Shown here: in pieces, positions 9,314 through 18,970 of the stretch
Layout of the letters: the number at the start of each line of letters is the position of its first letter
Position numbering within the stretch: position 1 is the first letter of the stretch
Virus record (IMG/VR): IMGVR_UViG_3300049170_000041
Coordinates: 1-28,955 of that record
Reading direction: 5' to 3' (one strand)
Length of the DNA: 28,955 bases
Source: a virus
Taxonomy: Duplodnaviria; Caudoviricetes
Program-made: the position numbers and the translations under genes
Notes under the pieces: model-generated
What the model saw: only the letters and a program-made list of their open reading frames with translations
Database searches by the model: none
What the model was told of the DNA's origin: nothing

Positions 9314-9702
9314 GCAACCGCCACTCTGCCGGGCGCACCGCCCGGACCCGCGAGCGCGGCGAGCGCCGCGAGACCTTCCTCGTCCTGCTCAACCGACTCG
9401 ACCGCCTGTCCGCCGCCGAGGCCGCCCTGCTCCTGGAGTACGCGCACGCCGAGCTCGCCGCCTCCGACGCGCTGCGCTCCACGCAGGTTGGCCTGGAACG
9501 CGCGCTCCAGGAGCGCACCGAGCAGCTGCGCGCGGCCGAGGCCGCGATCGTCGAGGCCGAGGGCGACCGCGACCGCCTCGGCGTCGTCCTGAACGCCATC
9601 CGGCGCGAGCTCGGCGGCGTCCTCTGGCCCGACCTCCCTCAAGCCGTCCGCCAGCTGGTCGCTGAGCGCGACCAGGCCCGAAACCACCCGGAGGAGCCGT
9701 GA
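9310..9702 (+). CDS. Hypothetical coiled-coil protein, 130 aa
   Basis: ATG after AGAGGA; helical E/R/A/L-rich sequence; translationally coupled on both sides. Confidence 0.75.
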   Translation: MSNRHSAGRTARTRERGERRETFLVLLNRLDRLSAAEAALLLEYAHAELAASDALRSTQVGLERALQERTEQLRAAEAAIVEAEGDRDRLGVVLNAIRRELGGVLWPDLPQAVRQLVAERDQARNHPEEP

Positions 9703-10364
9703 CCACCTGCCAGCTGTGCGAGCACCACGAGACCGACGGCTACCTCTGCCCCGGGTGCGTCCGCACCCTTGCCGAGCAGCTGCTCCGCATGCCCGCCCTC
9801 TACCGCGCGCTCGCCGCTTTCCTGCATCCGGCCGCCCGGGGCACCCAGCACGGCAGCCAAGCGCCGGCCGTGGAGGCGCCCCTCCCAGTCGCCGAGCACG
9901 TCCTCGACCTTCGAGGGCCCGGCGGCATGGTCGGCATCCTGGAGACCCAGCGCGCCGCCATGCACACCGCTCGCGGCTGGGCCGCGCCCGTCCTCGGCGT
10001 CGGCATTCTGAACCGCGTCACCCTGGCGGCGGGGGCGCTGGCCCACTCCCTCGACTGGGCCGCCGAGTCCTGGCCCGACGTCGGCGAGCTGGCCCGCACG
10101 ATTCGAGACCTCCACGGGTCGGCCGCGAGCGTCGTGCACCCGCGGCTGGCCGAGGAGCGCGGCACCCGGCTCGGGATGTGCCCGCAGCTGGTGAGCGAGG
10201 ACGAGGGCGAGGGTGTCTGTGGCGCGGTCCTGCGGCACTACCCCGGAGACCGGGCGGTGACGTGCCGGTGGTGCGGCACCGTGTACGAGCCGCACGCGTG
10301 GGGGGCGCTGCGCGAGTGGATCGACTACGAGGAGTCGAACGCCGCCATCGCACACGCCAGTTGA
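9699..10364 (+). CDS. Zn-ribbon protein, 221 aa (candidate late-transcription regulator, N-terminal part)
   Basis: CxxC..CxxC at the N-terminus and CP..C..CxxC at the C-terminus; RBS GGAGGAG; last gene of the early cluster. Confidence 0.75.
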   Translation: MTTCQLCEHHETDGYLCPGCVRTLAEQLLRMPALYRALAAFLHPAARGTQHGSQAPAVEAPLPVAEHVLDLRGPGGMVGILETQRAAMHTARGWAAPVLGVGILNRVTLAAGALAHSLDWAAESWPDVGELARTIRDLHGSAASVVHPRLAEERGTRLGMCPQLVSEDEGEGVCGAVLRHYPGDRAVTCRWCGTVYEPHAWGALREWIDYEESNAAIAHAS

Positions 10365-10376
10365 GCCGAAGGACAC

Positions 10377-10412
10377 TCGACTATCACACCCCCCTGTGAT
10401 AGCGTCTGCGAC
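10377..10412 (+). promoter_or_regulatory. Sigma70-type promoter with overlapping palindromic operator
   Basis: -35 TCGACT (10377-10382), 17-bp spacer, -10 TAGCGT (10400-10405), GTG 7 nt later (leaderless). Inverted repeat CTATCACA-C6-TGTGATAG (10381-10402). Confidence 0.75.
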
Positions 10413-10625
10413 GTGAACAACGAGCCCTGGCGGGCCAGGTTCGCGAGGGAGGACGAGCTGGTGGAACAGCTCCAATCCCAGTTGCTGGAGGCCGCCGTGC
10501 GCCGCGCTCAGGCACTCGCCGAAGGCGTGGCCGAGCTCGGCAGCGTCTACGCGGTCGCGAAGGCCACCGGCAGGAGCTGGACCGCCGTGAACAACGCGAT
10601 CAAGAAGCACACCACAACCACATAA
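10413..10625 (+). CDS. Small HTH protein, 70 aa (candidate Kor-like autorepressor of the accessory operon)
   Basis: N-terminal helix followed by HTH GSVYAVAKATGRSWTAVNNAIKK; leaderless start under the operator. Confidence 0.75.
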   Translation: MNNEPWRARFAREDELVEQLQSQLLEAAVRRAQALAEGVAELGSVYAVAKATGRSWTAVNNAIKKHTTTT

Positions 10626-10628
10626 AGC

Positions 10629-10690
10629 GAGGGCCGGGCGACAGCTCCCGGGTGGTGGAACACCCGGAGCGGCCGCGTCGCCCGACCCTC
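10629..10690 (+). promoter_or_regulatory. Long structured intergenic RNA hairpin (attenuator or processing site?)
   Basis: Outer stem gagggccgggcgac/gtcgcccgaccctc (one mismatch); inner stem gctcc-c-gggtg/caccc-ggagc; GTGGAA loop. Confidence 0.6.
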
Positions 10691-10728
10691 CGACCAGCCC
10701 ATCCTGACCTAACCAGGAGGACACGGCC

Positions 10729-11031
10729 ATGGCCGATGATGTCATGCGCGCCCCCGCGCCCGTACCCCCGGTGGAGCTCTCCCAGGAGACCCGGGGACTT
10801 CTCGTCGAGCTCGCCGACAAGCTCGATGCGCTCCGCCCGAACACCGACATGAGCGAGGGCATCCGCCTCGGCCAGGCCCTCGTCCTCGCCGAACAGCTCC
10901 ACGGCCCCACCGAGGCCGCCTACGCCGCCGAGCAGGACTTCCTCGCCGCGCTCCCCCACGTCCGCGACGAGCAGACCCGCGGCGAGTACGCCGCGCAGCT
11001 CCGCCTCATCGCGCAGGGGGTCACCCCGTGA
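10729..11031 (+). CDS. Hypothetical protein, 100 aa
   Basis: RBS AGGAGG; first gene after the hairpin. Confidence 0.8.
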   Translation: MADDVMRAPAPVPPVELSQETRGLLVELADKLDALRPNTDMSEGIRLGQALVLAEQLHGPTEAAYAAEQDFLAALPHVRDEQTRGEYAAQLRLIAQGVTP

Positions 11032-11252
11032 CCACCGTGACCACCGCCAGCCTTGACCAACTGGGCGACCTGACCGGCGACGTCATCGTCGTACCGCTCG
11101 ACGTCGCCCGACGCCTCGCCCACGAGACCTTTGCCGAGGTTGCTGACTCCGACATCCACAACCACCACGCGATGCTCTCCGTCGCGGTCTCCCTCGGCAT
11201 GCGGCTCGCCTCCCTCCTCGCCGCCCTCGACGCCGAGGAGGGCGAACGGTGA
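11028..11252 (+). CDS. Hypothetical helical protein, 74 aa (paralog of the next gene)
   Basis: GTGA overlap; ends LASLLAALDAEEGER. Confidence 0.75.
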   Translation: MTTVTTASLDQLGDLTGDVIVVPLDVARRLAHETFAEVADSDIHNHHAMLSVAVSLGMRLASLLAALDAEEGER

Positions 11253-11467
11253 ACGGCTACACCCCCCTGTTCGACCCGGAGAAGGACGGCCCCGTGTACT
11301 TCCGGGACCTGGACCACGCCCTGGACCGGGCCCGCGCCACGCTCGCCGAGAAGGGCCGGGCGAACTTGCACGACAGGGACGAGACGATCCGGGCCGCTTA
11401 CGGTCTTGCCCACGTGCTCGCCGGCTTGCTCGCCGCCCTCGACGCCGAGAAGGGCCGGACGCCGTGA
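11249..11467 (+). CDS. Hypothetical helical protein, 72 aa (paralog of the previous gene)
   Basis: GTGA overlap; RBS GAGGAGGG; ends LAGLLAALDAEKGRTP. Confidence 0.75.
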   Translation: MNGYTPLFDPEKDGPVYFRDLDHALDRARATLAEKGRANLHDRDETIRAAYGLAHVLAGLLAALDAEKGRTP

Positions 11468-12603
11468 CCACCACCCGCGAACTCAGCGGCGGACAGATCG
11501 CTGTCCTCGTCGCCGCCACCGTCCCCATGGTCGCTGTCGGCGCAGGCGGCGGCTGGGCCACCTTCACCAACGTGAGTGTCGAGTTCGGCCGTGCCGAGAC
11601 CGCCGTCGGCGCCGTCGCGGCCGGGGAGGGCGTCACCCTCGTCCTGGCCCTCGTCATGGTCGGCCTGACCATGCTCGGACAGGCCGCTCCCACCCCCGTC
11701 CGCGTCGGCCTCTGGCTCGCCCCGGCTGCCGCCTCCGTCATCGGCCTCGCCGTCGCCGACACCCTCACCGAGGCCGTCGTCTACGCCGTGACCCCCATGG
11801 GCATGAGCGGCGCCGCCGAAGGCCTCGGCCTCGTCGCCCGCCGGATCGTCGTCTACCGCACCCGGGCGGACGCCGAGGTCGCCCGCCGCAACGCAGACGC
11901 TGCCCGCGCCCTCGCCTACCACCAGGCCCGTGCCCGCAGCCACCCGGACAGGGCCGTCCGCTGGATCTCCGAGCGCGCCACATGGCGCATCGCCCGCATC
12001 ATCGGCGCCGGAGACACCGCGCTCTCCGACGAGCTCCTCGACGTGCAGCGCATCCGCATCACCGAGGGCGCCGACAGCGCACTCCGCACGATGATGGGCG
12101 CGCCTGCTCCGGCCCCGGGACTGAAAGCGCCGGCGCCGACCCGGCACTCCGCGCGGGAGGTCCTGCGGCGTCGCTTCGCCGAGATGGACCCCGAGGACGC
12201 CATCCGCATCACAGGTGATGCGCACCCTGATGCGACCCCGGCCGAGCTCGCCTCTCTGCTCATCGAGCACGGGGTGACTGTGGACGCGGTCGACGTCGTC
12301 CTCGTCCTTGGCCGGCCGCCCGCCAGGGCCGTCCTGGAGCGCGAGGACGCGCATGATGCGGGCACCGATGCGGACGATGCGCCGCAGGCCCCGCCTCTGC
12401 CCGCGCCGTCCAAGGCGGCCGCGATCCTCACCGCTGCCCAGGTCCTCGGCCCGAACGCCAAGGCCGCCGACATCGTCGCCCGCGTCGACCGCATCAATGG
12501 CATCAAGACCGATGCGCCCTACGTCCGCACCGTCCTGTCCCGAGCCCGCGACCCCCGAAAGGACGGCGAGAAGCCGCGCCCGATGGAAGGCGGCTACGCG
12601 TGA
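11464..12603 (+). CDS. Polytopic membrane protein resembling Streptomyces plasmid spread/transfer (SpdB-like) proteins, ~379 aa
   Basis: About four N-terminal hydrophobic segments, an R/A-rich helical region, Pro/Ala linkers and a C-terminal HTH-like segment (YVRTVLSR). Family assignment is from memory of this architecture. Confidence 0.65.
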   Translation: MTTTRELSGGQIAVLVAATVPMVAVGAGGGWATFTNVSVEFGRAETAVGAVAAGEGVTLVLALVMVGLTMLGQAAPTPVRVGLWLAPAAASVIGLAVADTLTEAVVYAVTPMGMSGAAEGLGLVARRIVVYRTRADAEVARRNADAARALAYHQARARSHPDRAVRWISERATWRIARIIGAGDTALSDELLDVQRIRITEGADSALRTMMGAPAPAPGLKAPAPTRHSAREVLRRRFAEMDPEDAIRITGDAHPDATPAELASLLIEHGVTVDAVDVVLVLGRPPARAVLEREDAHDAGTDADDAPQAPPLPAPSKAAAILTAAQVLGPNAKAADIVARVDRINGIKTDAPYVRTVLSRARDPRKDGEKPRPMEGGYA

Positions 12604-12764
12604 TCACCTACCACGCGCTCGGCTACTACGGCCTCCTCGGCATCCCTGCGGCGCTCGTCGTCGCCCGGGTCCTGCCCGTTGGCTCCCCGGCCCGGCGCAT
12701 CACCGCCCGTGCCGCGCTCGGAGCCCTCCTCCTCGTCGCCGCGATCATCGCGCTCTCGTACTGA
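12600..12764 (+). CDS. Small two-TM membrane protein, 54 aa
   Basis: VITYHALGYYGLLGIPAALVVARVLP..RRITARAALGALLLVAAIIALSY; GTGA overlap; RBS GGAAGG. Not in the ORF track. Confidence 0.7.
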   Translation: MITYHALGYYGLLGIPAALVVARVLPVGSPARRITARAALGALLLVAAIIALSY

Positions 12765-12775
12765 AGGACCCCATC

Positions 12776-13075
12776 GTGAAGACCACCCTGCTCGCCGCCA
12801 TCGACACCGCTAGCGCGCACACCATGGCCGCCCCGGCCGCCGCCGGCGCCCCGACCGGATCCGTCCCGATCTCCGTCCTCCTGATCATCGTCCTCAGCAT
12901 CTGGGCCTGGCAGATGCACAAGCACGGCAAGGACACCAAGAAGCTGCACCTGCTCCCCGGGTTCGTCTGCCTCGGCCTCGGCCTGTCGCTCTCCGGCACC
13001 CAGCTCGGCGCGATGATCGGCCAGCTCTTCGGCAGCGTCGGCAACATGCTCGCCACCTTCGTCGGCAGCGCCTGA
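12776..13075 (+). CDS. Small membrane protein, 99 aa (2-3 hydrophobic segments, Spd-like)
   Basis: GTG after GAAGGA; hydrophobic segments VPISVLLIIVLSIWAW and LLPGFVCLGLGLSLSG. Confidence 0.75.
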   Translation: MKTTLLAAIDTASAHTMAAPAAAGAPTGSVPISVLLIIVLSIWAWQMHKHGKDTKKLHLLPGFVCLGLGLSLSGTQLGAMIGQLFGSVGNMLATFVGSA

Positions 13076-13082
13076 CCCTCCC

Positions 13083-13727
13083 GTGGCCCTCGACTCCGAG
13101 GCGGACACCCTCGAACTGCCTCCCGTGCCCACCTTCGGGCGCGGGAGGCCCCGATGGGCCGCCCAACGCATCCACCCCCGCCGCATCAGCGTCGGCCACC
13201 TCAAGCTCTACGGTCGACTCCGCGGCTGGGCCCGCGCCGAGCACCACCCGACCCGCGGCAAGGCCATCGCCGCCCGCGCGTCCGGCCTCGCGCTCGGAGC
13301 CCTGATGACCTGGCGGACGGCGAACGAGCAGCCCCAGCTCCTGGCGCTCGCCGCCGGCGCCTACGCCATCGCGGCCTGGCGCGAGGGACGCCCCGTACCG
13401 CCCACCGAGGAAGAGCTTCAACGGCGCTTCCTCGTCGGCGTCCAGGAGCTCATCGGCGACCGCACCGGCATCCACCTCCGCGAGCTGTACGACGAGTTCC
13501 AGGCCAGGCCCGCGGCCGCCCATCTCGACGACGCGCGCCTCCGGGCGCTCCTCATCCACTGCGGAGTGCCCATCCACAAGAGCCTCCGGATCGGCGACCA
13601 GACCGGCCGCAGCGGCATCAAGGCCGCCGACGTCGAGACCCTCCTCTCCCCCACGCCCGTAGACCCCCCTTCCGAGCCTGTAGACGCAGGTCAGCCGCCC
13701 ACAGAAGTGGCTGTAGACCACGCGTAG
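13083..13727 (+). CDS. Membrane-anchored winged-helix protein, 214 aa (TraB-like termini, no FtsK ATPase domain)
   Basis: Two hydrophobic segments ending AAWREGRP, directly followed by VQELIGDRTGIHLRELY..LRALLIHCGVPIHKSLRIG..GRSGIKAADV. No Walker A motif. Confidence 0.65.
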   Translation: MALDSEADTLELPPVPTFGRGRPRWAAQRIHPRRISVGHLKLYGRLRGWARAEHHPTRGKAIAARASGLALGALMTWRTANEQPQLLALAAGAYAIAAWREGRPVPPTEEELQRRFLVGVQELIGDRTGIHLRELYDEFQARPAAAHLDDARLRALLIHCGVPIHKSLRIGDQTGRSGIKAADVETLLSPTPVDPPSEPVDAGQPPTEVAVDHA

Positions 13728-13744
13728 AGCAGGCTGTAGACCAC
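13657..13744 (+). repeat. Direct-repeat array CTGTAGAC (clt-like locus)
   Basis: ccgtagac 13657, ctgtagac 13678, ctgtagac 13711, gcgtagag 13722, ctgtagac 13734. GGCTGTAGACCAC occurs twice (13709-13721, 13732-13744). Confidence 0.75.
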
Positions 13745-13756
13745 CCAGGAGACCCC

Positions 13757-13846
13757 ATGCGACAGCACCTTCACACCCTCATCCGCGCCGCCGCCGACTA
13801 CTGCGCGGCCTGCGGCTGGTGGTCCAAGCCCTTCTGCGGACACTGA
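13757..13846 (+). CDS. Cys/Trp-rich microprotein, 29 aa
   Basis: RBS CAGGAGA; MRQHLHTLIRAAADYCAACGWWSKPFCGH with CxxC..CxH. Confidence 0.6.
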   Translation: MRQHLHTLIRAAADYCAACGWWSKPFCGH

Positions 13847-13894
13847 CCGCCCAACGCCCAAGCTCCGTCCCCGACACAACGGAAGGAACCGATC

Positions 13895-14077
13895 ATGAGC
13901 ATCCACCTGGCAGGCTGCGGCGCCGACGAGGACCCCGACGGCGAGACCATGTGTGTCTGCGACGACATCGAGCGGGAGCAGACCGCTTACGACCCGCGCG
14001 AGGACGAGGAGTGCACGCCCGAGCTCGTCGACGGCCACTTCATCGGCTGCGGCGCATGCGAGGCATGCCGCAACTGA
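13895..14077 (+). CDS. Acidic Cys-rich small protein, 60 aa
   Basis: RBS GGAAGGA; seven Cys including CxC and CxxCxxC. Confidence 0.7.
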   Translation: MSIHLAGCGADEDPDGETMCVCDDIEREQTAYDPREDEECTPELVDGHFIGCGACEACRN

Positions 14078-14195: not shown

Positions 14196-14209
14196 GCATG
14201 ATGGGGATC

Positions 14210-14431
14210 ATGGAGTACGTACAGCCGCCCGCCGGCACCCTCACCACCACCACGGCAGCGCTGTACGCCGGTGTCGCCCCCGCGACGATCCGGGACTGGG
14301 TACGGCGCGGAATCCTCACCCGCTGCGGCGGCACGCCCAAGCGGCCCGTCTACCGCGTCGGCGACGTCCAAGCCGCCCGCGTCGCCGCCAAGCCGTACAG
14401 CGGCAACCGACACAAGGCCAATGCCGCTTGA
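14210..14431 (+). CDS. MerR/HTH_17-type DNA-binding protein, ~73 aa (probably leaderless; alternative starts 14198/14201)
   Basis: LTTTTAALYAGVAPATIRDWVRRGILT..PVYRVGDV; -10-like CATGAT (14197-14202) 7 nt before the ATG. Confidence 0.8.
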   Translation: MEYVQPPAGTLTTTTAALYAGVAPATIRDWVRRGILTRCGGTPKRPVYRVGDVQAARVAAKPYSGNRHKANAA

Positions 14432-14456
14432 CGTGCGGAAACACATAGGCCACGAT
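14428..14456 (+). promoter_or_regulatory. Putative late promoter
   Basis: TTGACG-N17-CACGAT directly upstream of the packaging/structural operon. Confidence 0.65.
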
Positions 14457-14504
14457 TTGCGAGTACAGCCATGCCCGGAAACGGGCACAGCCGCGAGACT
14501 CCCG

Positions 14505-14540
14505 AGGCCCTGACCGCCACCCGGTCAGGGCCTTTCGCGT
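14505..14540 (+). terminator. Terminator-like hairpin in the late leader
   Basis: 12-bp stem aggccctgaccg/cggtcagggcct followed by TTCGCGT. A second 12-bp stem lies at 14551-14582. Confidence 0.6.
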
Positions 14541-14597
14541 ACCCCAGACCGGCCCGTCCGCGATCCCCGACGCGGACGGGCCTTCCCGTACCCGGAG

Positions 14598-14834
14598 GTG
14601 ACCGTGGCCGTCTGGACTGCCCAACACCGTCTGGCCGTCTACAGGCAGGTCGAGACGACGGCTGGCCCTGTGACCGAGCGTGGACAGGTGTGGGCCGACA
14701 CCCGGCCTACAGGGCGAGTACACCTTCTGTGCAACTGCGGCTGGAGCTCCGGATGGATTGACCACGCGGACATGCCCAGCCGCGAGCAGCTCACGGCCGA
14801 CCATGGCGTTCCTCTCATGAGCCTGAGCGTCTGA
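14598..14834 (+). CDS. Hypothetical protein, 78 aa (CxC..H); start may be 14604
   Basis: GGAGG upstream; TGATG coupling to the HNH gene. Confidence 0.65.
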   Translation: MTVAVWTAQHRLAVYRQVETTAGPVTERGQVWADTRPTGRVHLLCNCGWSSGWIDHADMPSREQLTADHGVPLMSLSV

Positions 14835-15187
14835 TGCCTCGCAAGGCCCTGCAGGTCTGCCCGACGCCTGGCTGCCCGAACCTGACCCCCCAGGGTCGAT
14901 GCCCCACCTGCCAGACCGAGGCCACCCGGACCCGCCCCCGGCACAAGGACGCAGGACGAGGCACCCGCTGGCGCAACGCCAGCACCGCATACCTCCAAGA
15001 CCATCCGTACTGCGAGTGCGACGCATGCGCCCCCCTGCCTCCCCTGCAGCGCGACCTCGCCACCGAGGTCGACCACATCGACGGCCTCGGCCCGCTCGGA
15101 CCCCGCGGCTACGACCCGTCCAACTGGCAGGCCATGAGCAAGAGACACCACGCCCGCAAGACCGCCCGGGAGACATGGGGCACGTGA
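14834..15187 (+). CDS. HNH endonuclease, packaging-associated, 117 aa
   Basis: CPTPGC..CPTC, HPYCEC, ATEVDHIDG..NWQAMSKRHHARKT; immediately upstream of terminase. Confidence 0.9.
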   Translation: MPRKALQVCPTPGCPNLTPQGRCPTCQTEATRTRPRHKDAGRGTRWRNASTAYLQDHPYCECDACAPLPPLQRDLATEVDHIDGLGPLGPRGYDPSNWQAMSKRHHARKTARETWGT

Positions 15188-15219
15188 ACTCCGAGTCTCA
15201 CTCTCCGTCGCCGGACCCA

Positions 15220-15295
15220 GGGGGGTGACCCCGCCGGCCCCGGGGGGAAACGACGCGGGGGAGGGCTCGACCTGGTCCGTCAGGTCAGAGGGTCC
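15220..15295. other. Probable cos/packaging-initiation region
   Basis: G-rich non-coding gap between HNH and terS (GGGGTGACCCC palindrome; CGCGGGGGAGGG). Position typical of HNH-assisted cos phages; the exact cut site cannot be determined. Confidence 0.4.
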
Positions 15296-15370
15296 GCCGA
15301 GGCCCCCCTGGCGTCACGCAACGTGATGCCGACGATGCTGCGCAAGGCGGCACGGTGAGGAGTGATCGCA

Positions 15371-15853
15371 ATGCCCCGAGGTGGACACGCTGCGTCTGGC
15401 CCGCCGCCGGACCCGAACGCACTGCGCCGCCGCCGGCCGTCCGACGCGGCCGGGTGGAAGACGCTGCCCGCCGAGGGTCGCACCGGTCCACTGCCCGAGT
15501 GGCCGCTGTCCGAGTCGACCGACCGCGAGTGGAACCTGTGGGCCGAGCTGTGGGAGAAGCCGCAGGCGGTGATGTGGGAGGAGATGGGCCAGGCCCTGGA
15601 GGTCGCCCTGTTCGTGCGGACTCTGGCGGAGGCCGAACGGCCGGACGCCCGGGTCGATATCAAGAAGATGATCCGCGGCTACCTCGACAGCCTCGGCCTG
15701 TCGGTCTCCGGCATGAACCGCAACCGCTGGCGGATCGCCCCCGTCATGGACACCGAGGCTGACGTGGTGCCGTTGGAGGCGGACCGCACCGAGCGGCGCC
15801 GGCCGTCGGCCCGGGACCGGCTGAAGGTCGTGCCCAGTGGCGAAGGCAGCTGA
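15371..15853 (+). CDS. terS: Terminase small subunit, ~160 aa
   Basis: Lies between HNH and terL; RBS GAGGAG; SGPPPDPNALRR..PQAVMWE..LGLS pattern. Confidence 0.8.
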   Translation: MPRGGHAASGPPPDPNALRRRRPSDAAGWKTLPAEGRTGPLPEWPLSESTDREWNLWAELWEKPQAVMWEEMGQALEVALFVRTLAEAERPDARVDIKKMIRGYLDSLGLSVSGMNRNRWRIAPVMDTEADVVPLEADRTERRRPSARDRLKVVPSGEGS

Positions 15854-17471
15854 GGCCGCCGCCGAGTTCGTCGTCGACTTCTCCACCCTCTGGATCGTCC
15901 CCGACTGGATCGAAGCCCACTGCCCGATCCCCGACGGCTTCCGCCAGGGCGAGGACCTGGAGCTGTACCCGTGGCAGCTGTGGTGCACCGTCAACCACTA
16001 CCGGGTCAAGCCCGGCGCCACCGTCGGGCAGCTCGCGCCGGCGTTCCACTACCGCCGATCCCAGATCGTCGCCCCGCAGAAGACCGGCAAGGGCCCCTGG
16101 TCCGCCACCATCACCCTGGCCGAAGCAGCTGGCCCGGTCGTCTTCAACGGCTGGGCCCGGGGCGGCGAGGTGTACCGGTGCTCTGCCCACGGCTGCAGCT
16201 GCGGCTGGTGGTACCAGTACGAGGCGGGCGAGCCGATGGGCACACCGTGGCCGACCCCGCTGATCCAGCTCGTGGCCACGGCCGAGGACCAGGTCGACAA
16301 CGTCTACCGGCCGCTGCGGAACATGGTGAAGCACGGGCCGCTGTCGGAGTTCATGCGGGTGGGCGAGGAGTTCACCCGCGTCGGCGACCAGGGCCGCATC
16401 GACACAGTGACCTCGTCGGCCATGAGCCGGCTGGGCAACCCGATCACGTTCGCCAACCAGGACGAGACGGGGCTGTGGACAACGGCGAACAAGCTGCGCC
16501 GGGTCGCCGAGACCCAGCGTCGTGGCCTGGCCGGCATGGGTGGCCGGTCGATGGAGACCACGAACGGGTGGGATCCGTCGGAGAACTCGGTGGCGCAGAC
16601 GACGTCGGAGTCCCGGGCCCGGGACATCTTCAAGTACCACCCGCAGGCGCCGAAGACCCTGTCCTACGCGAGCAAGAGGGATCGCCGGAAGATCCACACG
16701 GTGGTGTACGCCGGTTCCTCGCACGTCGACCTGGACGCGATCGAGGCCGAGGCCGCCGAGATCATGGAGAAGGACCCGGCGCAGGCCGAACGGTTCTTCG
16801 GCAACCGGTGCGTGGCCGGTTCGGCGTCCTGGATGGACGGGGCGAAGTGGGCGGCGAAGGCCGCACCACGGCACGTGCGCCCGCTGACCCGCATCGTCCT
16901 CGGGTTCGACGGCTCCGAGGTCGACGACTGGACGGCGATCCGGGCCGAGACGATGGACGGCTACCAGTTCACCCCGTTGTACGGGCCGAACGACGAGCCG
17001 ACCATCTGGAACCCGGCGGACTACGGCGGCCAGGTCCCGGCGGCCGAGGTGCACGCCGCGATGTCGCAGCTGATGGCCCGCTACGACGTGGTCCGGCTGT
17101 ACGCGGACCCGCCGTACTGGGAGACCGAGATCGACCAGTGGGTGGACCTGTACGGCGAGGAACGCGTCATCCGCTGGTACACCCGCCGCATCGTCCAGAT
17201 GCACGCCGCCTGCGAGCGGCTGAAGACGGACATCGTGCGAGGGGCCAGCGGCACCGTCACGTTCACCCACGACGGATGCCCGACCACCCAGGACCACATG
17301 GAGAACGCGCGCGCGGCCGCCCGCCCGATGGACCGCTACGTGCTGAAGAAGCCCAGCCCCAGCCAGAAGATCGACGCGGTCATTCCCAGCGTCCTGGCCC
17401 ACGAGGCGCTCGGCGACGTCATCGCCGCCGGCCTCGCGGAGAAGCAGATGAGTTTCTACTACGGCAGCTGA
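15837..17471 (+). CDS. terL: Terminase large subunit, 544 aa
   Basis: Walker A PQKTGKG, Walker B NQDE, motif III TTN, nuclease LGFDGS..DD and KIDA. Confidence 0.93.
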   Translation: MAKAAEAAAEFVVDFSTLWIVPDWIEAHCPIPDGFRQGEDLELYPWQLWCTVNHYRVKPGATVGQLAPAFHYRRSQIVAPQKTGKGPWSATITLAEAAGPVVFNGWARGGEVYRCSAHGCSCGWWYQYEAGEPMGTPWPTPLIQLVATAEDQVDNVYRPLRNMVKHGPLSEFMRVGEEFTRVGDQGRIDTVTSSAMSRLGNPITFANQDETGLWTTANKLRRVAETQRRGLAGMGGRSMETTNGWDPSENSVAQTTSESRARDIFKYHPQAPKTLSYASKRDRRKIHTVVYAGSSHVDLDAIEAEAAEIMEKDPAQAERFFGNRCVAGSASWMDGAKWAAKAAPRHVRPLTRIVLGFDGSEVDDWTAIRAETMDGYQFTPLYGPNDEPTIWNPADYGGQVPAAEVHAAMSQLMARYDVVRLYADPPYWETEIDQWVDLYGEERVIRWYTRRIVQMHAACERLKTDIVRGASGTVTFTHDGCPTTQDHMENARAAARPMDRYVLKKPSPSQKIDAVIPSVLAHEALGDVIAAGLAEKQMSFYYGS

Positions 17472-17482
17472 GAGGAGGACCG

Positions 17483-18970
17483 ATGGCGACCTACGAGCAG
17501 GCTCTCCACCTGGTGCAGCTGCTGGAGGCGGAGCTGATCGCACGCAGCGCCGGCATCACCCGGAACGACGCGTACTACCGCGGGAAGCATCCGCTGAAGT
17601 ACGCCTCCCAGGAGTTCGGGAAGTTCCACGGGGACCGCTACCGCGACTTCTCCGACAACTGGGTGCAGGTGGTAGCCGACAGTCCGGTCGAGCGGATGAC
17701 GGTGACCGGGTTTCAGGCATCGGGCGCCACGGACGCGGACAAGGACCTGTGGCGGGTGTGGCAGGTCAACGGCCTGGACGCCGACTCCCAGCTCGGGTTC
17801 CTCGGCTCGGTCGTGCACGGCCGGTCGTTCGTGCTGGTGTGGGGCGACCCGCGGAACCCGGACGTCCCGGTGGTCACGTTCGAGGATCCCGCGCAGTGCG
17901 TCATCGCCTACGAGCCGGGGTCGCGGCGGGAGCGGCGGGCCGCACTGAAGCGGTGGGAGGACGGCAACCAGGACTTCGCGACGCTGTACCTGGCCGACGA
18001 GGTGTGGAAGTTCTCCCGGCCGCGCCTGGCACAGAACAGCCTCGGCACGTCGGTACAGATGCAGGACGTGGACGAGGAGCTGAAGCGGTGGGCGCCCCGG
18101 GACATGGGCGCGGAGCCGAACCCTCAGGTGAACCCGCTCGGGGTCGTGCCGATGGTGGAGCTGCCGAACAAGCCGGTGCTGTCCGGTGATCCGATCAGCG
18201 ACGTGGCCGGTGTGGTCGCCATGCAGGACGCCATCAACCTGCTGTGGGCGCAGCTGTTCACCGCCTCCGACTACGCGTCCTTCCCGCAGCGGGTCATCAT
18301 GGGCGCCGAGCGGCCGGTCATCCCGAAGCTGAACGCGGCGGGCGAGGTAGTCGGCACCCAGCCGGTCGACCTGGAGAAGTTCGCCGTCGACCGCGTCATG
18401 ATGTTCTCCTCCAAGGACGCGAGGATCGGCGAGTGGCAGGCCGCCAACCTGGCCATGTACACCGGTCTGATCGAGGTAGCCGTCGGTCACCTCGCCGCCC
18501 AGACCCGCACCCCGCAGCACTACCTCATCGGGAAGATGGCCAACGTGGCCGAGGGGGCCCTGCTGGCCGCCGAGACCGGCCTGGTGAAGCGGGTCGAGGA
18601 GAAGCAGATCTGGTCCGGCCAGGGCCTGCGGGAGACGGCTCGGCTGATCGCCATGGCCCGGGGCGAGGACGAGAAGGCGGAGGCGCTGCGGTCCGGGCGG
18701 GTGCTGTGGAAGGACGCCGAGTCCCGCAGCCACGCGCAGATGGCCGACGCGCTGCTCAAGCTCAAGCAGTTGGGCTTCCCCTTCCAGTGGCTCGCGCTGC
18801 GCTACGGCCTCACCCCGACCGAGGTCGCCGACGTCCTGGCGATGAAGGAGGCTGAACTGGAGATGGACCCGGCCACCGAGCTGTCCCGGCAGCTGATCGG
18901 CTCCGCCCCGGGCACACAGCCGCCCGTCGTCGAGGGGGAGCCGGAGCCTGACGTCGAGGCGGCCGCATGA
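17483..18970 (+). CDS. Portal protein (SPP1 gp6-like), ~495 aa
   Basis: YYRGKH, NWVQVVADSPVERM, NGLD, GVVPMVELPN, FPQR; RBS GAGGAGG; follows terL. Confidence 0.92.
   Translation: MATYEQALHLVQLLEAELIARSAGITRNDAYYRGKHPLKYASQEFGKFHGDRYRDFSDNWVQVVADSPVERMTVTGFQASGATDADKDLWRVWQVNGLDADSQLGFLGSVVHGRSFVLVWGDPRNPDVPVVTFEDPAQCVIAYEPGSRRERRAALKRWEDGNQDFATLYLADEVWKFSRPRLAQNSLGTSVQMQDVDEELKRWAPRDMGAEPNPQVNPLGVVPMVELPNKPVLSGDPISDVAGVVAMQDAINLLWAQLFTASDYASFPQRVIMGAERPVIPKLNAAGEVVGTQPVDLEKFAVDRVMMFSSKDARIGEWQAANLAMYTGLIEVAVGHLAAQTRTPQHYLIGKMANVAEGALLAAETGLVKRVEEKQIWSGQGLRETARLIAMARGEDEKAEALRSGRVLWKDAESRSHAQMADALLKLKQLGFPFQWLALRYGLTPTEVADVLAMKEAELEMDPATELSRQLIGSAPGTQPPVVEGEPEPDVEAAA

Follow-up and report, generated by a model that had tools for sequence, protein, structure and literature searches.

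A transfer-spread-like cassette without a detectable TraB motor in tailed temperate phages of Streptomyces: a candidate membrane tether for DNA

Introduction

What could a temperate phage do with part of a plasmid-type transfer region if no DNA pump comes with it? Among the enzymes of DNA transfer in Streptomyces, TraB is seen as the key one, and the cassette studied here is a common one that keeps the docking parts of such a system and drops the pump. It lies on the + strand at positions 10377–14077 of the virus record IMGVR_UViG_3300049170_000041, which we analyzed whole (28,955 nt, ~77% complete, with its 3′ limit in tail genes) and refer to as the window. Proteins encoded in the window include a tyrosine integrase, a primase-polymerase, a helicase, an HNH protein, terminase, portal, capsid, tail tube, and tape measure proteins. 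The named relatives of the record are Streptomyces, and the cassette sits between a gene for a 221-aa Cys-rich protein and MerR-like, HNH, and terminase genes.

A sequence-only reading of this DNA had proposed that a virion-forming phage kept the membrane/spread and DNA-recognition parts of a transfer module and lost the ATPase. Our analysis bears this out in part: a TraB-type winged helix, an SpdB2-like protein, and a clt-like repeat array are present and no TraB match was found. Descent from the transfer-spread cassette of a plasmid or an actinomycete integrative and conjugative element (AICE) is also supported. We read the region as an intact, TraB-less Streptomyces transfer-spread cassette; as to function, we put at somewhat under one-half (about 0.45) the probability that its products form a membrane tether from which DNA would spread between hyphal compartments, driven by a motor supplied in trans.

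Results

No TraB Motor Accompanies the Cassette in the Records Searched

The motor was searched for with a profile built from eight TraB proteins and run on 40 records; Pfam PF01580 was dropped as a test, since it missed the annotated FtsK of phage TP1604. The profile matched 3 of the 40 records, namely a plasmid kept out of the training set (E = 9e-13) and two members of that set, and none of the 37 that carry the family of the 214-aa winged-helix protein. Among these 37 are the isolated phage VWB, 20 virus records with a completeness of 90% or more, and the complete circle NZ_CP108372 (34,477 bp). Nor was an FtsK/TraB ATPase found in the ~77% complete window. The claim that the module lacks a DNA motor thus held in the window and in all 37 records with the winged-helix gene, and the same synteny without an FtsK domain was found across many Streptomyces prophages. 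An AICE is defined by an integrase, Rep, and TraB without virion genes; the window, with terminase, portal, capsid, and tail genes and no TraB found, lies outside that definition.

The sister provirus L008/G004 shares the flanks, the 70-aa helix-turn-helix (HTH) gene, the hairpin, and the 379-aa family with the window and has a 726-aa TraB in the slot, so TraB and motorless forms occupy one position. This 37-kb provirus (G004:C1:1-37128) has full virion genes together with an AICE-type cassette (DUF6907, Pycsar-effector-like, NUDIX, and the TraB). TraB/FtsK-type ATPases were found in all five host genomes tested, four of them with matches at E ≤ 1e-33, and strain NBC_01335 carries a TraB plasmid. 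The record NZ_CP108372 was filed as a circular plasmid of 34.5 kb but proves to be a complete temperate phage that carries the motorless cassette; NZ_CP108373, from the same strain, is a linear plasmid of 15.7 kb that encodes TraB and a homologue of the 379-aa protein.

The 214-aa Protein Ends in a TraB-Type Winged Helix

Fold matches to the winged-helix part of the 214-aa model reached Z 5–7. When this part was aligned with the C termini of 37 AICE-type TraB proteins, from which six more divergent TraBs were left out, HHalign gave 92.6% (E = 4.6e-7). Sequence-level searching was weaker: 3 of 44 TraB frames (two of them one gene) were recovered at E ≤ 0.004 among 3,369 frames, and a profile of TraB C-terminal halves matched VWB gp26, a homologue of the 214-aa protein, at E = 4.5e-5 and did not match the window protein itself. 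The N-terminal half showed no detectable homology to TraB N termini (HHalign 1%). The name "miniTraB" given to this protein in the sequence-only reading therefore suits its C-terminal winged helix and not its N-terminal half; judged by these alignments, it seems fair to call the name apt for domain and position and unproven for the whole protein.

The family comprises 125 clusters with open frames at 90% identity and 297 at 50%, and sizes run from 92 to 516 aa among the best 150 of 297 profile matches. A word search, which is weak evidence, found no longer fused forms; in L016 and L036, the winged-helix frame continues into the 3′ Cys-rich gene, giving fusions of 301–304 aa. A tblastn search with the 214-aa protein, one distant relative, and a 168-aa partner returned nothing among isolated phages, though VWB has both genes, and single-sequence searches are thus too weak for this family.

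Two Repeat Arrays Lie within Cassette Genes or across Their Ends

The clt-like repeat array proved real and spans the end of the 214-aa gene. Five of the seven plus-strand GTAGA(C/G) matches of the window fall inside 110 nt at 13657–13741, which none of 20,000 random placements equaled; the window therefore has direct repeats at or beside a gene end, as TraB/clt systems do. The clt array of pWTY27 overlaps a gene end with the same geometry (PMC3583192).

A second array, missed by the sequence-only reading, lies within the 3′ half of the 379-aa gene. Six of the 11 plus-strand GATGCG matches of the window cluster within 310 nt at 12217–12516 (0 of 20,000 random placements equal that), and GAT accounts for 6 of 16 Asp codons in this half of the gene vs. 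0 of 8 in the 5′ half. The array is present in all 12 genes with the same C-terminal HTH type and in none of the 21 with others; other C-terminal types of this large gene carry other repeated words. We regard the GATGCG array as a candidate site for the C-terminal HTH of the 379-aa protein.

Among 99 distinct loci, 78 could be placed by eye in four repeat classes and 21 in none. Repeat class tracks winged-helix clade, with 16 changes on a tree of the winged helix only vs. 55.6 after shuffling (99 loci). The central word GCAGGTCA lies inside the array in 70 of the 99 loci, flips with repeat orientation in 56 of 56 cases from the three purine-rich classes, and also occurs 3′ of one full-length TraB gene. 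A role for it like that of the FtsK-orienting polar sequences (KOPS) was rejected, longer patterns being interspersed on both strands of two chromosomes; the strand counts of GCAGGTCA (345/346) are near those of the control (321/321). Copies of GCAGGTCA/TGACCTGC recur at cassette gene ends and near element ends, at 234, 13686, and 17761 in the window, at 17664, 19506, and 49212 in L070 (VWB), and at 9422 and 13189 in L008. In the close relatives L011 and L012 (10570–11000 in each), the GTAGAC array is broken by other sequence directly past the winged helix.

The 379-aa Protein Is Remotely SpdB2-Like

In the model of the 379-aa protein, a membrane bundle of four N-terminal helices is followed by a helical stalk, and the C-terminal part forms two small helical domains that are HTH-like. 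Searches of Pfam, PF10935 included, and of NCBIfam assigned it to no family (one family member reached E = 0.003, below cut-off), and Foldseek against the PDB gave no match at E ≤ 0.001 for the 379-aa or the 214-aa model. The family as a whole aligned with six DUF2637 proteins at HHalign 48–56% (E = 1–2e-4 over 115 columns), compared with ≤0.7% for unrelated membrane controls. The DUF2637 set in turn aligned at 92.5% with a 371-aa pJV1 protein, hypothetical in its record, which we take to be SpdB2. Neighbours in the ESM Atlas were a "conjugal transfer protein" (0.98) and HTH_SpdB_C, DUF2637, and SpdB clusters (0.91–0.94), and many of its 823 homologues are labeled "conjugal transfer protein". 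Residues 1–212 found tblastn matches in 15 phage and 36 plasmid records, one of the plasmid matches being to the C-terminal half. The homologues in TP1604 and Mischief19 are each separated by two genes' distance from an annotated FtsK-like translocase.

These comparisons place the 379-aa protein among SpdB2-type proteins as a remote relative that is not a Pfam member, so that likeness to Spd/Tra families, on which the sequence-only reading depended, is present among the membrane proteins in this remote, DUF2637-like form. Pfam, PHROGs, and NCBIfam gave no name to any cassette membrane gene. SpdB2-like proteins from at least three families share one slot and are mutually exchangeable.

The Cassette Has Its Own Control Region

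The putative operator is an inverted repeat, ACTATCACA-CCCCCC-TGTGATAGC, with 9-bp arms, present in a single copy in the window. An inverted repeat occupies this position in 20 of 23 distinct anchorable HTH loci, in several arm sequences whose two arms change together. A generic sigma-70 scan called no promoter at 10377–10405, so the promoter call rests on conservation. The start codon of the HTH gene follows the −10 box by 7 nt, and the transcript would be leaderless. The 70-aa protein is presumably an autorepressor in a Kor-like role and is not a GntR protein. Kor-type repression, as originally suggested, would thus rest on a small HTH gene with an operator, while the putative repressor itself is not of the GntR/TraR kind; GntR-type TraR/KorA repressors are absent from the phage form and present in the plasmid and AICE-like forms.

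Between repressor and cargo genes, the RNA hairpin shows covariation, with 7 of 18 pairs changed on both sides across 28 sequences, a value reached by 0 of 500 shuffles, although that count is not a probability because the sequences are kin and the structure was derived from them. In slid controls, pairing falls to 29–49%. One pair alternates between U-G and U-A, which favours an RNA element. No Rfam family matched 10629–10690 at gathering score, and the hairpin may be an attenuator or a processing site.

The Cassette Is Widespread in Streptomyces and Not Confined to Phages

A broad winged-helix profile matched 97 of 401 sampled Streptomyces genomes, mostly in prophages. In a sample of 301 genomes drawn from the whole phylum it matched four, each of which belongs to the Streptomyces set. 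In 40 wider regions, hand-picked over the score range of the 401-genome search, packaging genes lay within ~9 kb in 27 (26 by our own profiles and one by Pfam), and there were no TraB matches. The cassette is not phage-specific: it is found on AICE-like elements with Rep and integrase (L114 and L120), on plasmid-like contigs, and on each of four complete plasmids analyzed out of 12 matching plasmid records. In all four plasmids, the winged-helix gene stands with TGACCTGCGG repeats and two membrane genes in an operon divergent from a GntR gene, and there is no TraB match. L114 and L120 are integrated and combine GntR, membrane genes, and the winged-helix gene with a DnaB-N/DUF3987 Rep and an integrase; they are negative with the TraB profile. 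On two small plasmids, L189 (pEN2701) and L156, the motorless cassette occurs together with a relaxase of the MobA/VirD2 type, which suggests mobilization by another system. The 41-kb linear plasmid record L192 (NZ_CP108035) consists of an inverted duplication of ~20 kb, possibly an assembly artefact.

In the isolated phage VWB, the cassette corresponds to gp22–gp26. The annotated starts of gp25 and gp26 (L070:17668–18918) seem too far upstream, and an unannotated membrane gene lies between gp24 and gp25.

Median ratios of nonsynonymous to synonymous substitution (dN/dS) relative to the window were 0.36–0.75 for module genes and 0.26–0.31 for core genes (0.26 for terminase and helicase), calculated by a simple counting method at high GC from pairs of at least 65% identity only.

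Remaining Features of the Locus

The elements that the sequence-only reading had listed (promoter, operator, HTH gene, hairpin, membrane genes, and repeats) are in place on the + strand (Table 1), and the cassette open reading frames (ORFs) are coding-like in composition, with overlapping stops and starts. Counts of locus context in the table refer to the first 51 distinct loci.

Of the three small genes first described as soluble, all are present, and the 74-aa product has one hydrophobic stretch (hydropathy 1.84). Other subtypes have a 130–200-aa membrane gene in place of the 99-aa gene. Two Cys-rich microproteins had been assigned to the module; the 29-aa one is conserved, whereas the 60-aa ORF has no homologue in 69 loci and is probably outside the cassette core. 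Two plasmid versions of the cassette have annotated zinc-ribbon or rubredoxin-like microproteins shortly 3′ of the winged-helix gene.

Across L001–L069, the slot of the cassette stays fixed while head modules and replication genes are swapped among several types. Between the MerR-like gene and HNH (14480–14600), the window has two GC-rich hairpin-like inverted repeats, with a weak Rfam match to Actinomyces-1 (E = 0.35, under cut-off). No RNA data set was found listed for the sequence, and the one DNA data set that was, which may be its source, has no variant letters across the cassette region.

Table 1. Cassette features and flanking genes in the window. GC3, G+C content at third codon positions; pLDDT, predicted local distance difference test
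Feature	Position	Strand	Support and remarks
221-aa Cys-rich phage protein, left edge of slot (upstream flank)	9699–10364	+	phrog_1467, E = 3e-20; 5′ of cassette in 42/51 loci
Predicted promoter (−35 TCGACT, 17 nt, −10 TAGCGT)	10377–10405	+	Sequence; palindromic operator 10380–10403 between boxes
70-aa HTH protein	10413–10625	+	Weak Pfam HTH match, E = 0.012; 34 cluster members
Conserved RNA hairpin, near-invariant TGGAAC loop, between repressor and cargo genes	10629–10690	+	z = −4.13; covariation
100-aa protein, conserved accessory gene	10729–11031	+	GC3 0.93; 38 cluster members; related gene is VWB gp22
74-aa protein, paralogue of 72-aa gene	11028–11252	+	GC3 0.89; one cluster with 72-aa gene
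72-aa accessory protein	11249–11467	+	GC3 0.96; cluster of 24
379-aa SpdB2/DUF2637-like membrane protein	11464–12603	+	Model pLDDT 81, hydropathy, HHalign, ESM Atlas
Second array, six GATGCG, within 3′ half of 379-aa gene	12217–12516	+	Absent from the sequence-only reading
54-aa two-helix membrane protein, core of window's subtype	12600–12764	+	Hydropathy 1.7 and 2.3; 38 cluster members
99-aa two-helix membrane protein, directly 5′ of winged-helix gene	12776–13075	+	Hydropathy, alignment, synteny
214-aa protein, hydrophobic helical hairpin (~58–101) and winged helix (~105–190), no ATPase	13083–13727	+	Model pLDDT 82
clt-like array, (C/G)(T/C)GTAGAC repeats around central GCAGGTCA (13686–13693), across stop codon	13657–13741	+	
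29-aa CxxC...C-H microprotein, conserved 3′ of array	13757–13846	+	Cluster of 23
60-aa acidic Cys-rich ORF	13895–14077	+	GC3 0.92; no homologue in 69 loci
MerR-like HTH, HNH, terminase small and large subunits (downstream flank)	14198–17471	+	Terminase/portal 3′ in 48/51 loci

Discussion

If the cassette spreads DNA, its parts could work together as follows. The 70-aa HTH protein would repress its own leaderless promoter, and the operon would fire once the DNA enters a repressor-free compartment; the hairpin would limit read-through into the membrane genes. The 214-aa protein, sharing the membrane with its 99-aa and 54-aa partners, would bind the GTAGAC array at the end of its own gene as TraB does clt. 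The 379-aa protein would bind the GATGCG array and oligomerize to a channel like SpdB2, which in pSVH1 forms pores, permeabilizes membranes, and is needed for spreading and pock formation (PMC4447253). Excised phage circles docked at this complex could then pass to neighbouring compartments, the pump being either the TraB of a co-resident element or a translocase of the FtsK/SpoIIIE type from the host, a coupling that we infer. In this way, the phage would colonize or lysogenize the mycelium without waiting for lysis. Either the adaptor would recruit a host motor or the DNA would cross the cross-walls motor-free, and both bear on the mechanism of intramycelial spreading.

Several observations weigh against this picture. 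The covariation of repeats and protein is a mark of co-inheritance and does not establish binding, because the array is part of the same gene and kin share labels. The winged helix is structurally near DUF3631 domains too (template-modeling score 0.66–0.70 vs. 0.72 for FtsK/TraB); HHalign of the winged helix against the DUF3631 C terminus, with two DUF3631 sequences only, gave 0.1%. The sequence-only reading saw a transmembrane segment joined to a winged helix; the winged helix stands and a hydrophobic hairpin is predicted, but this anchor is weak in the window protein (maximum 19-residue hydropathy 0.87), and a hydropathy of 1.5 is reached by 4 of 58 close relatives and by 84 of 133 members of the broad family. 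When the 379-aa family was compared directly with pJV1 SpdB2 or pIJ101 SpdB, HHalign gave 0.2%, so the link to plasmid SpdB proteins is only transitive. In 12 of 51 loci, a small soluble protein (10 from one HTH family and 2 from another) replaces the SpdB2-like gene, and the putative channel is thus dispensable. Co-residence with TraB is unspecific, since at least 57 of 121 Streptomyces genomes have TraB-like genes. Finally, the pSVH1 model has TraB itself taking part in spreading (PMC4447253).

A wider version of the proposal is possible but doubtful. It holds that Streptomyces has a second, TraB-independent DNA-traffic system, in which a membrane-anchored winged-helix adaptor with its own array would couple phage, plasmid, or AICE DNA to the host septal translocase. 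About a quarter of species would then have such elements, mostly tailed prophages, which would spread between compartments and hyphae as naked DNA with no motor encoded.

The cassette may instead serve retention or positioning, by tethering excised or replicating circles to the membrane or to growing tips and so carrying them into branches and spores, with no need of a motor. The missing ATPase in phages, AICE-like elements, and plasmids, and the dispensable channel, are accounted for more simply in this way than by spreading. One cassette phage was assembled as a free 34.5-kb circle, and there is a precedent in pIJ101 SpdA2, whose binding repeats lie within its own gene and which has an effect on stability but none on pocks (PMC4170104). 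Integrated prophages and AICEs, however, are passed on together with the chromosome, ParA is encoded by some of the carriers as well, and most cassettes have kept the SpdB2-like gene; we consider retention rather unlikely.

Decidedly less probable is exclusion, by which an ATPase-less protein with Spd-like partners would poison or occupy rival TraB/Spd machines or block superinfecting DNA at the membrane. A motorless subunit with membrane and DNA-binding ends is what a dominant-negative form might be expected to look like, the N-terminal part of TraB interacts with the C-terminal part (PMC4447253), and the quick exchange of cassette parts fits a conflict. Yet an inhibitor of other elements would have no need of its own matched array at the gene end, and the N terminus of the 214-aa protein lacks homology to TraB. 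Improbable, too, is a membrane role in the lytic cycle, with an operon near the late genes making pores or anchoring DNA for replication or packaging: the fixed place just 5′ of HNH/terminase in 48 of 51 loci and the membrane permeabilization by SpdB2 (PMC4447253) would suit it, but the same cassette is found on non-phage plasmids and AICE-like elements, and the sister phage L008/G004 has a full TraB in the slot. That the cassette is left over from a captured plasmid transfer region, is decaying, and no longer has a function is largely refuted and very improbable, since against the raised dN/dS of the module (0.36–0.75 vs. 0.26 for terminase and helicase) and the interrupted array of L011 and L012 stand 125 open-frame clusters at 90% identity and 297 at 50%, an occurrence in 97 of 401 genomes that is anything but sporadic, conserved arrays, operator, and hairpin, and a cassette in the isolated phage VWB.

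Comparison with Known Systems

The tra-spd region of pSVH1 (TraR, SpdB3-Spd79-SpdB2, TraB, and clt; PMC4447253), compared by description, resembles the cassette in being a repressed operon of overlapping small genes, with a four-helix SpdB2-like protein, small membrane partners, and a winged-helix protein beside short direct repeats. The cassette differs in having no FtsK ATPase, in having a small HTH gene and an RNA hairpin and not GntR, and in its location on a tailed temperate phage. pIJ101 SpdA2/sps likewise joins a DNA-binding protein to repeats inside its own gene, but SpdA2 is soluble and its sites are palindromic, whereas membrane anchoring is predicted for the cassette proteins, which have direct repeats (PMC4170104).

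Phages TP1604 and Mischief19 and the provirus L008/G004 also bear plasmid-type transfer genes, including the 379-aa family, yet retain the ATPase (annotated in the first two as an FtsK-like translocase). The plasmid-phages pZL12 and pFP4 bear TraB and have likewise retained the ATPase. Nearest in content are pEN2701 (NC_004931) and three further complete plasmids, which share GntR, two membrane genes, the winged helix, TGACCTGCGG, and an SpdB/DUF2637-type protein, with no TraB match; they differ in their plasmid backbones and repeat word, and pEN2701 has a relaxase.

In the literature searched, we found no description of a motorless plasmid cassette of the pEN2701 type, nor of a TraB-type protein that lacks the ATPase and comes with an array of its own; the primary papers on VWB, phiC31, pEN2701, and TraB fell outside its coverage. 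The available part of PMC11302927 does not mention Spd. That phage Spd proteins may aid spread is already in print, while the motorless adaptor, the arrays, and the breadth of distribution were not found in the searchable literature.

The closest published idea is that SpdB2 homologues on the actinophages phiC31 and VWB might assist the spreading of phage DNA (PMC4447253, citing Smith 1999 and Van Dessel 2005). The passage in question names SpdB2 alone and says nothing of the winged-helix gp26, the array, the small partners, or the cassette as a whole. Like the window, VWB is a virion-forming temperate phage with an SpdB2-like gene (gp24 is DUF2637, E = 1e-35) and no TraB match. What was a one-line speculation on phage SpdB2 thereby becomes an operon of defined content for which binding sites are predicted and for which VWB, an isolated phage of S. 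venezuelae, offers a test system. If true, it would change the view of how temperate phages colonize a multicellular host.

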